A stretch of DNA of 64,000 nt from a phage: NCBI GenBank assembly GCA_014435945.1, contig GCA_014435945.1_4088.1. One strand, written 5' to 3'. Under the pieces are notes generated by a model. That model did not search any database. It saw only the letters and a list, made by a program, of their open reading frames with translations, and had not been told where the DNA came from. A program made the translations under genes and the position numbers. Positions 46 to 9,464 of this stretch are shown one piece after another; within the stretch, counting starts at the first letter, position 1, and every line of letters begins with the position of its first letter.

Positions 46-456
46 ATGATTGAAATGGAAGGAACTCTGGTGTATGATCCAGATCGTGGCACTATGAAAA
101 AGAAGAAGGACTTCTGGTTAGTACTGCAACTTCCATTACAGTTGGTTCGATACTACCAGTACTTCATCAGAACTGACTTACATATTGATATCAAAGACCC
201 ACAATGGGGAGCACATGTCAGTATCGTTCGTGGTGAAGTGCCACCAAATCCAGAGTACTGGAAAAAGTACGATGGTATGAAAGTTAAGATTAAGTTCGAA
301 CCTTTCATCGAAGAAGTAAAAGACAATAAGAAACCTGGGTCATTCTTTATCATAGAGTTTGAAGATGATTTCATTGCACAAATTCGTGATGAACTTGGTT
401 TAGCATCTAAATATTTCAAATATCACATCACCATTGGTAGAACATACTACGATTAA
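46..456 (+). CDS. 2H phosphoesterase superfamily protein (LigT/Acb1-like)
   Basis: 136-aa ORF with AGGT RBS; two H-x-S/T-x motifs (HVSI, HITI) about 70 aa apart; N-terminal FWLVLQLP resembles LigT FFAIDLP. Confidence 0.5.
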   Translation: MIEMEGTLVYDPDRGTMKKKKDFWLVLQLPLQLVRYYQYFIRTDLHIDIKDPQWGAHVSIVRGEVPPNPEYWKKYDGMKVKIKFEPFIEEVKDNKKPGSFFIIEFEDDFIAQIRDELGLASKYFKYHITIGRTYYD

Positions 457-479
457 TGTGGTTATTTGGTAAATAGGTC

Positions 480-507
480 TTGATATAACTAAAAAGTATG
501 CTATACT
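480..507 (+). promoter_or_regulatory. sigma70-like promoter (TTGATA-N16-TATACT)
   Basis: hexamers with 16-nt spacer upstream of the lysozyme-like gene. Confidence 0.3.
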
Positions 508-623
508 ACTTAAATGTTCCAAAGAACAACTGAGTACTGTAGAAAGTCCAATGAGGCTTTTGCAAATGGCCTCTTTGCCCTCTTTGTGATTGCTCATTGT
601 TAACAACCAACAAAGGAGGCGTT

Positions 624-1550
624 TTGAAAAAAGCGAAAAAAGCACTGAAAACTAAAATTGCCGTAGGCGTATTAGTTTCATCAGCCCTATTCGCTGCTAT
701 TGGATTTTATGGTTTTTCTCAAAGTGATCATGTACCATCATTAGACGAAAGTCAGGTGCATAATTTAAAACCACAGTTTACTCAAATTCAAAAGCAGGAA
801 CTACCAAAGGTATCAGTACCAAAAGCAGTTCCAAGCAGCGAGAAACATTATACGGTTCAACCTGGTGATAGTTATTATTCTATTGCACAGAAATTTAAAC
901 CTAAAAATGTACAGATTGAAGATTATGTCATTTTGTTGAAGAACATCAACTTAAATGCAACTCTTCATACTTCTCAGGGTATCTTTATCCCAACAAAAGA
1001 GGATTTGAAGCACGTATTGTTACCAGATGTGACTGTACTGTTTGATTATAAAGATCCAGAAATTGTCAATCACATCAAAGAAGCTGAAGGTTCTATTGAA
1101 TTTCAGTCCAAGAACAAACGACGTTTACTTGGTGGGAAAGTTGGAGTTCCATATCGAAATTCTAAATTTTATCCGTATCGTGATATAAAAGGTAACTTCA
1201 CTATTGGGTACGGACATTATCTTGGAAAGAAAGAATCAGATGCAAGTAAGTATCGTAATGGTATTACGAAGTCACAAGCACATAAACTTTTATTGTCTGA
1301 CATGGAACGAACTAATAATGATTTAGTTTTATTATTGAAGAAAAGAAATGCAACAAACCTTACGGCTGAACAACAACGAATTTTATTTGAGATGGCATTT
1401 ACATTAGGAGTTGATAAGTTAAATACTTTCAATAAATTATGGAAAAGCGTTGATAATCAAAATAATAACAAGTTCAAAAAAGAAATTAAGAATTCTCTAT
1501 GGTATCGTCAAGTAGGAAACCGTGCAGAATTGTTAGTTAGTAATTTGTAA
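624..1550 (+). CDS. membrane-anchored LysM + T4-lysozyme-like (GH24-like) peptidoglycan hydrolase
   Basis: track ORF 597-1550; TTG at 624 follows AAAGGAGG RBS; N-terminal hydrophobic helix, LysM-like YTVQPGDSYYSIAQ, C-terminal region aligns by eye to T4 lysozyme (DIKGNFTIGYGH ... WYRQVGNRAELL). Confidence 0.55.
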   Translation: MKKAKKALKTKIAVGVLVSSALFAAIGFYGFSQSDHVPSLDESQVHNLKPQFTQIQKQELPKVSVPKAVPSSEKHYTVQPGDSYYSIAQKFKPKNVQIEDYVILLKNINLNATLHTSQGIFIPTKEDLKHVLLPDVTVLFDYKDPEIVNHIKEAEGSIEFQSKNKRRLLGGKVGVPYRNSKFYPYRDIKGNFTIGYGHYLGKKESDASKYRNGITKSQAHKLLLSDMERTNNDLVLLLKKRNATNLTAEQQRILFEMAFTLGVDKLNTFNKLWKSVDNQNNNKFKKEIKNSLWYRQVGNRAELLVSNL

Positions 1551-1560
1551 TTTACAATAA

Positions 1561-1588
1561 AGGATGATATGTATCATCCTTTATTTTT
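1561..1588 (+). terminator. rho-independent terminator
   Basis: AGGATGATA/TATCATCCT inverted repeat followed by T-rich run. Confidence 0.6.
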
Positions 1589-1599
1589 AAGGTAAAAAT

Positions 1600-2232
1600 A
1601 TGATATATAATGTTGGTATAAATGATGTACCAGGTGATTCTAAATCGGATAGTGATGGTTATTATATATATGTGAAATGGAAAAGTATGATTAAACGATG
1701 CTACTCAGTTGAATATCAAAAAATACATCATTCATATATTGGAACAACTGTATGTAATGAATGGCTTACATATTCAAATTTTAAAGATTGGTATCTAAAT
1801 AATTACATAGACGGGTATGTTTTAGATAAAGACTTGATATCGGGTGATTTACAAGTATACTCACCAGTGACATGTTCATTTGTACCACAAGAATTAAATT
1901 GTTCTATTCTTGAAAGTAATAGTGCTAAAACAAAACTACCATTGGGTGTGTCATATCAACAGAAAACTAAAAATATGATAAATGAACGTTCGAAACCATA
2001 TGATTCATATATAAAAATGTATGGTAAGTTGTATCGTCTTGGTAGTTATGAATGTCCTGAACTTGCACATAAAGAATGGCAAATCGCCAAGAAAAAATAT
2101 CTCGAAGAACTCATTGACAGATATAAAAATTCTGTTAAAATGGAAGTCATAGAAGGTATTCAGAAACGAATTGATATATTACATAATGATATAGTCAATA
2201 ACGGTGTTACAATCACAATCAATAAGATATAA
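1600..2232 (+). CDS. HNH-like / AP2-domain DNA-binding protein (homing-endonuclease-like)
   Basis: N-terminal W-x-SMI-x-RCY ... TVCNEW pattern and C-terminal GVSY...YRLGSYECPELAHKEW resembling AP2 domains fused to phage HNH-type nucleases; motif-level only. Confidence 0.35.
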   Translation: MIYNVGINDVPGDSKSDSDGYYIYVKWKSMIKRCYSVEYQKIHHSYIGTTVCNEWLTYSNFKDWYLNNYIDGYVLDKDLISGDLQVYSPVTCSFVPQELNCSILESNSAKTKLPLGVSYQQKTKNMINERSKPYDSYIKMYGKLYRLGSYECPELAHKEWQIAKKKYLEELIDRYKNSVKMEVIEGIQKRIDILHNDIVNNGVTITINKI

Positions 2233-2244
2233 GGTAGGTAAATT

Positions 2245-7669: not shown

Positions 7670-8461
7670 ATGTCTTACGATTATATGGGTGGAAACCCAG
7701 ATGCTCCAAACTTTGATCATCGTGAAAAACTGAAAGATGTTATCACTCAAATGTTAGGTGCTGGTGCAGTTGAAGTTGAAATTACTGATGGTCAATTGGA
7801 AATTGCAATTGATAATGCGGTATCAAACTACCGAGCATGGAGTTCTGCTTCAAAAGAAGAAGCATTCTTGAACATGAAATTCTATGATTCACAATCTGTA
7901 TACATGCTTCCTACTGAAGTTGAAATTGTCAAACAGATTTATCGTTATGGTAACGGTTATCTAAGTTCTGGTAGTGGTAACTCAGTAGACCCTTTTTCAC
8001 TCGCATTTACCAACACTTACCTTTTAACGTCTGCACGTAACGCTGGTGGTTATGACTTAACTACTTATGATTTTAGTTTTCAGTTCCAAGAATTAGTTGG
8101 GCGTATGTTTGGTAGAGAAATCATCTTCCAGTTCAACCCAATGACCAAAAAACTAATAATTGACCGTGATATTCGTGGTACTGAAGAAGTGCTATTACAT
8201 GTATATCATAATATACCTGAACCATTGCTATTCCAACGTCAACAAAGCTATCCTTGGCTACGTGACTGGGCATTGTCTGAAGCTATGATTATGTTGGGTC
8301 GCAACCGTGCTAAATTTGCTACATTACCTGGACCACAGGGTACATTCTCTATGGATGGTGATACATTACGTAATGAAGGTGCACAACTTCAAGAACAGCT
8401 TAAAGAACAGTTGAAGAGATACAAAGATGGTGGTGATCCACTTGGAATGATTATCGGATAA
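7670..8461 (+). CDS. hypothetical protein (possibly virion/tail-associated)
   Basis: track ORF 7655-8461; ATG at 7670 after GAGGTG; late-type motif upstream. Confidence 0.45.
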   Translation: MSYDYMGGNPDAPNFDHREKLKDVITQMLGAGAVEVEITDGQLEIAIDNAVSNYRAWSSASKEEAFLNMKFYDSQSVYMLPTEVEIVKQIYRYGNGYLSSGSGNSVDPFSLAFTNTYLLTSARNAGGYDLTTYDFSFQFQELVGRMFGREIIFQFNPMTKKLIIDRDIRGTEEVLLHVYHNIPEPLLFQRQQSYPWLRDWALSEAMIMLGRNRAKFATLPGPQGTFSMDGDTLRNEGAQLQEQLKEQLKRYKDGGDPLGMIIG

Positions 8462-8471
8462 AACAAAAAAA

Positions 8472-8497
8472 AGACTCCTATATGGGGTCTTTTTTTA
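8472..8497 (+). terminator. rho-independent terminator
   Basis: AGACTCC/GGGGTCT stem followed by TTTTTTT. Confidence 0.65.
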
Positions 8498-8504
8498 TAT
8501 GTTG

Positions 8505-8513
8505 TGATATAAT
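8505..8513 (+). promoter_or_regulatory. extended -10 promoter element (TGaTATAAT)
   Basis: immediately after the terminator, about 30 nt upstream of ORF 8541. Confidence 0.35.
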
Positions 8514-8540
8514 GATAATATTAATCTAAAGGAACCTGAC

Positions 8541-8819
8541 ATGAATAACAACATAGATGCAGTGTATGCAATGTATAACAAATATACTTGTGGAGCACCT
8601 ACATTGGATTATGAATCAACCGAAAAGAACTGGAAATTTATAAAAGAATCAATCGTAGATGTTTTCGGTAGAGATCGAATAAACGCGTGGGCGAGTATAT
8701 GTCGTGATGATAATGGAGAAACATTCTACATCACTTATGTTACTATATATTATGGGAGTGAGTTTATAGTTGGATTACTTGAATGTTTAGTAGGAAAGGA
8801 TTTAGTAGTACTTATATAA
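8541..8819 (+). CDS. hypothetical protein
   Basis: 92-aa ORF with AAAGGAAC RBS. Confidence 0.35.
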   Translation: MNNNIDAVYAMYNKYTCGAPTLDYESTEKNWKFIKESIVDVFGRDRINAWASICRDDNGETFYITYVTIYYGSEFIVGLLECLVGKDLVVLI

Positions 8820-8837
8820 TATACATGGAGAAGTATT

Positions 8838-9464
8838 ATGGAAAGACAAATAATTGCAATTAACGGTACTATCGGTAGTGGCAAAGATACTTTTGGTGAA
8901 ACTTTTATCAATAATGGTTACACAAGAATGTCATTTGCAACTAATCTTAAAGATTCAGTTGCTGCTATCTTTGGATGGGATCGTGAAATGCTTGAGGGTT
9001 CGACTAAGGAAAGTCGTAAACTCCGTGAAGAGCCAGACCAGTACTGGTGTGAGAAGTTGGGTCGTGATGATGTTTCCCCTCGTTGGGTATTACAGAATTA
9101 CGGTACTAATATTTTGCGTAAGTACTTTCATAATGATATTTGGGTCCATAGTTTAGAGAAGTCAATGCAATCTGTTGAAGGGAATATTATCATTACTGAC
9201 TGCCGATTTCCAAATGAACTAAAAATGATTCGTTCATTAAATGGTATTGTGATTGAAGTTCAGCGTACCCTCCCACACTGGTATGGTTTAGCAGCATCTT
9301 TTAATAAAGGTGATATTAGCATGAAACCAATTGAGTTAGAATCAGTTCATGAATCTGAATGGGCGTGGATTGGTATCAATAATCCTGATATCATTGTACA
9401 AAATAATAGCACAATTGAAGCGTTGCACCAACAAGCATTGAGCGTTATTTATGCCAATAAGTGA
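8838..9464 (+). CDS. deoxynucleoside monophosphate kinase (T4 gene 1-like)
   Basis: 208 aa; P-loop IAINGTIGSGKDT at the N-terminus, as in T4 dNMP kinase. Confidence 0.55.
   Translation: MERQIIAINGTIGSGKDTFGETFINNGYTRMSFATNLKDSVAAIFGWDREMLEGSTKESRKLREEPDQYWCEKLGRDDVSPRWVLQNYGTNILRKYFHNDIWVHSLEKSMQSVEGNIIITDCRFPNELKMIRSLNGIVIEVQRTLPHWYGLAASFNKGDISMKPIELESVHESEWAWIGINNPDIIVQNNSTIEALHQQALSVIYANK

Follow-up and report, generated by a model that had tools for sequence, protein, structure and literature searches.

The repair of PrrC-cleaved tRNA-Lys by T4 Pnkp and Rnl1 is the paradigm of how a phage heals and seals tRNA cleaved by its host. In jumbo phages, Iyer, Anantharaman, Krishnan, Burroughs & Aravind (2021, PMC7824862) grouped CCA-adding enzymes, PTH2 proteins, 2H phosphoesterases, RNA ligases, Macro and Nudix proteins under RNA repair, ribosome rescue and ADP-ribose processing, and read them as mending damage inflicted by the host on the translation apparatus. 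A pathway of NAD+-dependent RNA repair, leading from a 2H enzyme to KptA/Tpt1 or a sirtuin and on to 2H, Macro and Nudix proteins, was set out by Iyer et al. (2022, PMC9503650), who describe such combinations in the RaK2-like Serratia phage BF. Here we consider a related block of genes at positions 46–9464 of a 64,000-nucleotide stretch of phage DNA (assembly GCA_014435945.1, contig GCA_014435945.1_4088.1), the whole of which is referred to as the window. The block encodes a 2H phosphoesterase, a ribosome-associated protein of the HPF/RaiA family (HPF), a CCA-adding enzyme, a PTH2-fold protein, a macro domain protein, a Nudix hydrolase, a glutaredoxin and a deoxynucleoside monophosphate (dNMP) kinase. 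The concept of RNA repair and translation upkeep by jumbo phages is already published (PMC7824862, PMC9503650), and the block is not a newly found, self-contained anti-defence system.

The block resembles the NAD+-dependent pathway of PMC9503650 in holding, within 7 kb, a 2H enzyme, a Macro protein of the Appr-1''-p processing type and a homologue of an ADP-ribose-active Nudix hydrolase. It differs in that the window lacks KptA/Tpt1, a sirtuin and an RNA ligase, the first two being missing from the Pfam results for the window. The sirtuin cluster described in Serratia phage BF in the same paper has cREC and PIN partners which are not seen in the block, and is probably a different locus. The likeness to T4 Pnkp/Rnl1 lies in the RNA ligase which sister genera carry in their version of the block; unlike T4, healing here would fall to a 2H enzyme rather than to Pnkp, no ligase is present at the locus, and the focus would be on the 3'-CCA end and not on the anticodon loop. 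The gene sets of PMC7824862, for their part, come from a survey of phyletic patterns rather than from this collinear block, and their PTH2 is assumed to be an active hydrolase. The original prediction had held the combination to be undescribed, which is only half true: CCA, PTH2, 2H, Macro and Nudix proteins are discussed together in both papers, whilst HPF is mentioned in neither. In PMC7824862 the word 'hibernation' has no match and the sole match to 'RaiA' is an author name; a 2026 jumbo-phage review does not discuss HPF either. The genes of the block are already annotated in many GenBank records, and HPF is its least-discussed component.

On balance, the interval 46–9464 is probably a conserved accessory arm which precedes the neck and tail module of RaK2-like jumbo myoviruses, vertically inherited, made up of several units and carrying, in reduced form, an ancestral set of genes for RNA repair and translation upkeep. 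A megablast search with positions 1–9600 places the source in Asteriusvirus, one of the RaK2-like jumbo myoviruses (350–385 kb) and infecting E. coli. The search matched 53 phage records, 30 of which cover at least 80% of the query; the closest are the Escherichia phages WPEC3, Ecwhy_1 and vB_Ec-M-J (~97% identity), with the type phages 121Q and PBECO4 at ~85%. Collinearity was assessed by tblastn of 21 window proteins against 11 loci (121Q, vB_Ec-M-J, Hallingskeid, fHe-Yen9-04, RCIP0023, RaK2, CBB, GAP32, XbC2, XaC1 and Munch), which span at least six genera (Asteriusvirus, Alcyoneusvirus, Mimasvirus with GAP32, CBB and XbC2, Eneladusvirus with fHe-Yen9-04, and Munch, XaC1 and Hallingskeid). 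Gene order is identical in all 11. In the non-Asteriusvirus loci the shared genes are 30–80% identical to those of the window (30–64% for the PTH2-like gene), compared with 63–72% for the tail sheath. Judged by these alignments, the genes of the block behave as core genes of the clade and not as a mobile cassette.

All eight domain calls, on the + strand between 46 and 9464, are borne out by profile, PDB or fold evidence. HPF, the CCA enzyme, Nudix, glutaredoxin and dNMP kinase pass Pfam gathering thresholds, and the HPF, PTH2 and 2H assignments, which the original prediction had singled out as the points where it could fail, survive profile and fold tests at the level of family, 2H through its homologues, as the window protein itself scores below the Pfam cut-off. 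Genes scattered through related phages would likewise have spoken against the prediction; in all RaK2-like relatives examined they are linked. The description of the region as an island fares less well: the G+C content of the first 10 kb (0.33–0.37) is near that of the rest of the window (0.34–0.42), the block is present and collinear in 11 of 11 loci with a single variable open reading frame (ORF), which encodes an HNH endonuclease, and about 12 other genes are interspersed among the eight. The genes do share one strand, as had been remarked, but this carries no weight, since the + strand holds every long ORF between 46 and ~26 kb. Coordinates given below refer to that strand unless stated otherwise.

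A longer form of the block is found in Mimasvirus (GAP32, CBB, XbC2), Eneladusvirus (fHe-Yen9-04), Munch and XaC1. On the 5' side of the 2H gene these loci carry an RNA ligase (PHA02142 OB-fold, 3.4e-38; PF09414, 4.7e-18) and a 504-residue DUF2828/DUF7788/vWA protein, and 3' of the glutaredoxin gene a YqeY-domain gene, except in Munch, where none was detected. Hallingskeid has the ligase, with 2H, DUF2828 and YqeY not detected; the ligase of the clade is present in seven sister loci. In several genera RNA ligase, 2H, CCA, YqeY, PTH2-fold and HPF genes are gathered within 12 kb. The RNA-repair and translation theme is strengthened by the sister blocks, because they add the ligase, the DUF2828/vWA protein and YqeY. 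Neither DUF2828/vWA nor YqeY is matched in the 64-kb window or at the loci of Asteriusvirus and Alcyoneusvirus, and by gene content the window holds a reduced derivative of a fuller block which looks like one for RNA repair and translation upkeep. In Mimasvirus, Eneladusvirus and Hallingskeid an ORF of ~190 residues overlaps the 2H-SAK gene at its 3' end (GAP32_179, at 4882–5457 of the GAP32 locus). It has no Pfam match, is missing from Asteriusvirus just as the RNA ligase and DUF2828 are, and may be an uncharacterised repair component. The possibility that GAP32_179 (191 residues) supplies the missing Tpt1/KptA was dropped, as it has neither a Pfam match nor a counterpart in the window.

Outside the clade, Acinetobacter phage ME3 has a CCA-type nucleotidyltransferase gene which is preceded, at a distance of ~4 kb, by genes for a Nudix protein of the ADP-ribose pyrophosphatase type and for a homologue of DUF2828 (E 3e-50 to GAP32), with tRNA genes adjoining (genes at 1755–3656 and 6911–7573 of the ME3 locus). 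Part of the association recurs here, independently, in another genus of jumbo phages. Other translation genes of Asteriusvirus lie elsewhere in the genome. In fEgEco12 the tRNA genes are found near 295 kb (PMC13070987), the block being at 118–127 kb, and in Sharanji initiation factor 3 (IF3) and a tRNA adenosine deaminase are far from the block, to judge by their distant accession numbers (PMC11895373). No tRNA genes were found in the 64-kb window.

The surroundings of the block recall T4, in which rI.-1, tk, tk.4, e, nudE, eight tRNA genes and gene 1 fall within 58.8–75.4 kb, beside tail and head-completion genes. RaK2-like phages carry an rI.-1-like gene, tk, lysozyme, NudE-like and Tk.4-like genes and a dNMP kinase gene in an arm which precedes the sheath, tube and head-completion genes. 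The two regions thus share homologous macro, Nudix and lysozyme genes, together with tk, an rI.-1-like gene and dNMP kinase, and in T4 a translation-related locus, the tRNA cluster, adjoins. They differ in order and orientation, and in that T4 has tRNA genes in place of CCA, HPF, PTH2-fold and 2H genes. Strict synteny with T4 was rejected, the order relative to the coding strand being reversed, and the likeness is one of co-localisation only. It shows that several members of the supposed toolkit are old accessory genes of the T4 superfamily and not a newly assembled set.

The first gene of the block encodes a 2H phosphoesterase of the 2H-SAK family, a predicted 2',3'-cyclic phosphodiesterase of 136 residues (46–456; PF22547, phrog_12204). 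The window protein scores 23.8 bits against PF22547, where the cut-off is 27, in a match limited to its C-terminal half. All 15 aligned homologues match this model at E <= 0.01 (best 3.9e-10), and GAP32_178 exceeds the cut-off at 32 bits. The two H-x-S/T motifs, H57-V-S59 and H127-I-T129, are invariant in these 15 homologues, which are 49–88% identical, and the gene is found at the same site in nine of the 11 loci with 55–100% identity. Neither a single-sequence nor a family-profile search of the PDB with the 2H protein found a solved 2H protein.

The CCA enzyme is a Class II CCA-adding tRNA nucleotidyltransferase of 371 residues (3759–4874), with the PolyA_pol head domain (PF01743, 5.5e-19), the RNA-binding domain (PF12627, 3.1e-10) and a match to phrog_2244 at 1.9e-117. 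Its translation displays GGYVRD (GGxVRD), DKD (DxD), RRD and EDPLR (EDxxR) motifs, and its best NCBIfam models are CCA enzymes (2.7e-84, against 4.6e-26 for PcnB). It shows 56–99% identity across all 11 loci and 56–67% in the non-Asteriusvirus loci. The match to the NCBIfam model of E. coli-type Cca is confined to positions 1–204 of 409, and the phage enzyme, which has no Pfam match to an HD domain, lacks the HD phosphohydrolase half of E. coli Cca. The annotation 'multifunctional CCA protein' is therefore wrong for this HD-less enzyme. In host Cca the HD domain is the source of the 2',3'-cyclic phosphodiesterase and phosphatase activities. Because the phage enzyme is without it, the healing step may be left to the separate 2H enzyme, which is a plausible substitute for the missing cyclic phosphodiesterase activity.

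HPF is a short ribosome-associated protein of the HPF/RaiA family (110 residues, 2245–2577). It scores 35.1 bits against PF02482 (S30AE), above the cut-off of 23.7, and 28.8 bits against NCBIfam TIGR00741, below the equivalog cut-off of 40.9, a pair of scores which argues for membership of the family and not for equivalog status. Solved HPFs in the PDB match the phage protein at 4.9e-6 to 4e-3, the best being ribosome-bound HPFs. A single S30AE domain of ~95 residues is followed by a basic linker, and the C-terminal tail is acidic (...LTDNEE). The acidic C-terminus recurs in all nine phage HPFs which represent the genera, as DNEE, EDNE, EIEE, ESEE, SIES, DEDE or ESDE, and in an alignment the phage HPFs are 15–28% identical to E. 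coli HPF. The length and acidic tail are reminiscent of E. coli RaiA. The phage HPF is thus like the bacterial short HPF/RaiA (YfiA) in having one S30AE domain above the Pfam threshold, and unlike it in being encoded by a lytic phage and in that its ribosome binding is only predicted. No functional study of a phage HPF was found in the searchable literature, and no Rfam family was found in the window, nor any raiA-type motif near the HPF gene. In RaK2, ORF030 occupies the HPF slot; its candidacy as a divergent HPF was rejected, as it has no Pfam match and shows only weak similarity to a pair of paralogues described below.

The PTH2-fold protein (125 residues, 7031–7408) was recognised through Foldseek and a family profile, and is without the canonical PTH2 catalytic loop. 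It has no Pfam match of its own and a single-sequence search against solved structures gave nothing useful, yet eight of 11 homologues match PF01981 (best 5.6e-7). With its AlphaFold model (predicted local distance difference test, pLDDT, 74; predicted template modelling score, pTM, 0.66), the top 12 of 12 Foldseek matches in the PDB are PTH2 structures (E 2.4e-5 to 3.4e-4, probability 1.00, TM 0.50–0.65), the next match reaching only E 0.085. A family profile of wider scope, for which homologues were gathered exhaustively, matches S. solfataricus Pth2 (1xty) over its full length at 2.5e-5. Four other PTH2 structures follow at E <= 1.3e-3, among them 2zv3 (4e-5), 1rlk (6e-5) and 1wn2 (1.5e-4). 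Matches of this profile to proteins of 776–3348 residues were rejected as homology, being sums of weak repeat matches.

Compared with the PTH2s of S. solfataricus (1XTY), M. jannaschii (2ZV3) and human (Bit1, 1Q7S), the window protein has the same fold and full-length sequence homology, and retains the helix-2 tryptophan as well as the terminal G-P strand. What its family does not conserve is the loop, the β-hairpin which follows it and the N-terminal G-K-G-K. In the profile alignment five solved PTH2s share a D-[A/R]-G-x-T-[Q/E]-x-x-P-G-T-x-T segment, where the window protein has F-G-N-G-E-E and then proceeds directly to the last strand. Across 21 members of the PTH2-like family the D-x-G-x-T-(Q/E) position is variable, the β-hairpin is deleted, the G-K-G-K segment of the solved proteins is not conserved, and only W61, G107 and P108 are invariant. 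Mutagenesis of S. solfataricus Pth2 has reportedly implicated the loop aspartate and a lysine of the N-terminal segment in catalysis. The window protein is a PTH2 homologue in which canonical hydrolase chemistry is doubtful, because the conserved D-x-G-x-T loop is absent, and the label 'peptidyl-tRNA hydrolase' in some GenBank records may be over-specific. Between the macro and PTH2-like genes, in 11 of 11 loci, lies a gene for a phrog_527 protein of unassigned function (6701–7018; 3.8e-22), for which structure prediction gave no usable fold (pLDDT 36). One record labels this protein 'methylamine utilization'.

The macro domain protein (6214–6690) is T4 Tk.4-like and belongs to the BT1257/SCO6735 class. 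It falls just below the Pfam Macro cut-off (20.4 bits against 22) and matches 2fg1 (BT1257) at 7.8e-16, 5e3b (SCO6735) at 2.1e-11 and the ADP-ribose-1''-phosphatase 6lfu at 1.7e-6, with 29% identity to T4 tk.4 (E 1e-9) and 45–63% identity in the non-Asteriusvirus loci. The Nudix hydrolase (4981–5394; PF00293, 9.6e-12) is a homologue of T4 NudE (NudE.1), to which it is 40% identical (E 2.2e-14); its Nudix box, G-x5-E-x7-R-E-x2-E-E-x-G, is intact in the translation (GKTEGTETFKEAAVRECYEETGY), and it is 57–80% identical in the non-Asteriusvirus loci. The annotation of T4 NudE names ADP-ribose, FAD, NADH and diadenosine polyphosphates as its substrates, and T4 NudE.1 is reported to decap NAD-RNA in vitro (bioRxiv 10.1101/2024.04.04.588121). 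The glutaredoxin (5384–5632; PF00462, 9.8e-9) has a CKFC motif and is GrxA-like (NCBIfam GrxA 5.8e-18, below the model cut-off). The dNMP kinase (8838–9464) matches PF21448 at 3.3e-12 (46.9 bits against a cut-off of 27.1) and phrog_139 at 2.9e-48. Both fit the supply of deoxynucleoside triphosphates (dNTPs) and not translation, as does the thymidine kinase gene which relatives carry immediately upstream. The glutaredoxin is probably a reductant for ribonucleotide reductase and hence part of that supply.

The arrangement of the block is not that of a single operon or discrete system: hairpins occur within it, and genes for lysozyme, the HNH endonuclease, the neck protein, glutaredoxin and dNMP kinase are mixed in with the rest. 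In all, 14 terminator-like hairpins were found where 5.8 +/- 2.2 are expected, and four strong ones stand at gene ends: directly 3' of the HPF gene (2586–2613, a 12-bp stem followed by a T-run), 3' of a gene for an 85-residue protein (6173–6196), 3' of the neck gene (8466–8496, reported on the + strand only) and 3' of the sheath gene (12229–12250). Because of these, the block would be split into at least four transcription units, with lysozyme, HNH and HPF in one predicted unit, CCA, Nudix and glutaredoxin with small ORFs in another, and macro, phrog_527 and PTH2-like genes with the neck gene in a third. Munch has annotated terminators after the HPF gene and after the neck gene. The perfect palindromes at 2586–2613, 6173–6196 and 12229–12250 have T-runs on either side and score as terminator-like on both strands; the neighbouring genes are all on the + strand. 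Matches to sigma-70-like promoters are at chance level (59, against 54.6 +/- 7.7). The octamer of T4 late promoters, TATAAATA, is absent from both strands of the whole window, where shuffles predict 6.45 +/- 2.59, which may reflect avoidance or a different late-promoter consensus.

Clustering of the translation genes is stronger than random placement. In a simulation with 593 ORFs, the probability that a span of 20 genes takes in at least four of six translation-related protein genes (HPF, CCA, 2H and PTH2-like, with IF3 and the tRNA adenosine deaminase from the Sharanji list of PMC11895373) was P = 0.0015, a value which overstates significance, phage genomes being modular.

The remaining genes of the region have varied roles. 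A LysM and T4-type lysozyme of 317 residues, read from a TTG at 597 (597–1550; Phage_lysozyme 1.4e-9, LysM 2.5e-4), is 27% identical to T4 e (E 1.6e-8); the annotations of 121Q and vB_Ec-M-J start it about 27 bases downstream, giving 308 residues. Its role is in lysis or in the virion, outside the translation theme. Between it and the HPF gene lies an HNH homing endonuclease gene (1600–2232; phrog_953, 3.6e-68), a strain-specific insertion which is absent from 121Q and vB_Ec-M-J and is the only variable ORF. Homologous HNH genes stand in the same gap in GAP32 (Cronobacter, 53%, split into two ORFs) and Munch (Salmonella, 51%), suggesting that the lysozyme–HPF gap is a recurrent homing site. 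Two tandem paralogous ORFs which overlap by 14 nucleotides follow HPF (2801–3214 and 3201–3623; phrog_20693, 4e-60 and 3.5e-53). Among the 11 loci they are confined to those of Asteriusvirus, and they show weak similarity (E 0.002) to RaK2 ORF030, in the HPF slot of Klebsiella phages. The best-conserved small ORF of the block encodes a basic protein of 85 residues and unassigned function (5905–6162), with no Pfam or NCBIfam match. It is 58–99% identical in 11 of 11 loci (58–71% in other genera, 92–99% within Asteriusvirus), a conservation comparable to that of CCA and slightly under that of the tail sheath, and its gene closes the predicted CCA–Nudix–glutaredoxin unit. The structural gene at 7655–8461 encodes a neck protein or head–tail adaptor Ad2 (T4 gp13-like; phrog_211, 2.2e-42), is so annotated in relatives, and is 59–80% identical in the non-Asteriusvirus loci. 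Further along the window, the structural region contains three giant ORFs on the minus strand, at 29300–35020 (1906 residues), 35170–40086 (1638 residues) and 52517–62518 (3333 residues). The encoded proteins, probably of the fibres or the baseplate, show no similarity to the PTH2-like profile.

If the functions of the families carry over to their phage members, a partial pathway can be proposed. The 2H-SAK enzyme would open the 2',3'-cyclic phosphates which metal-independent RNases leave on tRNA ends, and the HD-less CCA enzyme would then rebuild trimmed 3'-CCA tails. The short HPF/RaiA-type protein would bind the decoding region of the 30S subunit and park or protect ribosomes. The PTH2-fold protein might engage charged or peptidyl-tRNA at its acceptor end, either simply by binding it or through a non-canonical mechanism. 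The Tk.4-like macro and NudE-like Nudix proteins would degrade ADP-ribose-derived or NAD-capped molecules, and glutaredoxin and dNMP kinase, with the thymidine kinase found upstream in relatives, would feed the dNTP pool. The genes for lysozyme, the neck protein and the HNH endonuclease are likely to be unrelated neighbours, and the RNA ligase, DUF2828/vWA and YqeY genes were presumably lost from the block in this genus. Because the ligase is lost, the block could plausibly mend tRNA 3' ends, and could not by itself seal breaks in the anticodon loop. The original prediction of a coordinated tRNA and ribosome toolkit is thus upheld in part: the families are real, are linked in relatives, and are joined by RNA-repair genes in sister genera, but they are spread over several units interleaved with unrelated genes, the PTH2 loop is absent and there is no ligase.

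A number of points weigh against reading the block as an inherited arm with an embedded upkeep set. Linkage within one clade is inherited collinearity and no demonstration of functional coupling, and the replacement of the PTH2 loop, described above, counts in the same direction. The RNA ligase of the clade was matched nowhere in the 64-kb window (best E 1.6), nor in the loci of Asteriusvirus and Alcyoneusvirus, and amongst the 336 phage records with ligase homologues, Escherichia and Klebsiella phages lie outside the ten commonest organisms. No phosphatase for the 2'- or 3'-phosphate left by the 2H enzyme was identified in this analysis. The HPF gene is missing at this locus in RaK2-type Klebsiella phages, and HPF is therefore dispensable for the rest of the block. 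The searchable literature holds no expression, biochemical or genetic data on the block proteins in this clade. Several of these observations would suit an absence of any functional coupling, the synteny of old T4-superfamily accessory genes (tk, e, nudE, tk.4, gene 1) being simply inherited and the translation genes having lodged amongst them by chance. T4 keeps the homologous accessory genes and its tRNA cluster together, relatives have the rI.-1-like gene and tk just upstream, CCA genes in unrelated phages have different neighbours, and the remaining genes are kept where HPF is absent (RaK2) or where ligase, DUF2828 and YqeY are (Asteriusvirus). Asteriusvirus keeps its tRNA genes, IF3 and tRNA adenosine deaminase in other parts of the genome (PMC11895373, PMC13070987). 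We nonetheless think this somewhat unlikely: the differences in order and orientation from T4 leave co-localisation and not strict synteny, chance is hard to credit for the ligase, 2H, CCA, YqeY, PTH2-fold and HPF genes within 12 kb in several genera, and the association of Nudix, DUF2828, CCA and tRNA genes recurs in ME3.

It is unlikely that the genes form a dedicated counter-defence toolkit, as first envisaged, which jointly neutralises host immunity directed at the 3' ends or anticodon loops of tRNA, or acting by ADP-ribosylation of phage or host molecules, with tRNA-tail nucleases, nucleotidyltransferase/pyrophosphokinase toxins, GNAT toxins and DarT-like enzymes as candidate opponents. 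It is attractive in that tRNA tails are a documented immune target, cleaved by Cas12a3 (PMC12851939), that the phage-defence system DarTG relies on a macrodomain in its antitoxin, DarG (PMC11481870), and that RNA repair in jumbo phages has been read as counter-defence (PMC7824862). Clustering beyond random placement is in keeping with it as well, and the macro domain of the window has a weak similarity to the DarG macrodomain (E 3.3e-8, far below the cut-off). Yet the genes of the block are conserved like structural core genes. Anti-defence genes are usually fast-evolving and patchy in distribution. The several units, interleaved with lysis, structural and dNTP genes, the absent ligase and the missing PTH2 catalytic loop likewise speak against such a toolkit, and nothing in the analysis links any gene of the block to a particular host defence. 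HPF/RaiA-family proteins inactivate ribosomes, and it can be asked whether the block serves host take-over instead, with HPF shutting off or reprogramming host ribosomes early, and macro and Nudix proteins tidying up after phage ADP-ribosyltransferases and NAD-capped RNAs. The Pfam and PDB matches support the family membership of HPF, its gene has its own terminator-like hairpin 3', and macro and Nudix homologues occur in T4, which uses ADP-ribosyltransferases of its own (PMC9503650) and whose NudE.1 acts on NAD-RNA in vitro. Against this, no ADP-ribosyltransferase turned up in the window, no search being aimed at one, and HPF is missing in RaK2-type phages, so that take-over seems quite unlikely. 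An inherited arm with an embedded upkeep set remains the preferred reading. A bolder version of it, in which a conserved upkeep supermodule of acidic-tailed HPF, re-tooled PTH2-fold protein, 2H and HD-less CCA enzyme would keep ribosomes and tRNA 3' ends usable under attack on tRNA tails by Cas12a3-like nucleases or CapRel- or MenT-type modifiers, HPF acting as a protector or anti-hibernation factor and not as a simple inhibitor, is speculative and on present evidence rather improbable.

The present result is mainly a correction of annotation, in which an apparent island becomes inherited genome architecture. Of all its components, HPF and the PTH2-fold protein without its loop most deserve experiment. 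Should the block prove to work as a unit, Asteriusvirus phages, which plate on K-12, would provide a tractable E. coli model for how large lytic phages maintain tRNA 3' ends and ribosomes, for the role of a viral hibernation factor and for whether a PTH2-fold protein without the canonical loop has a new activity, questions which are timely now that immune effectors which cut tRNA tails are known.

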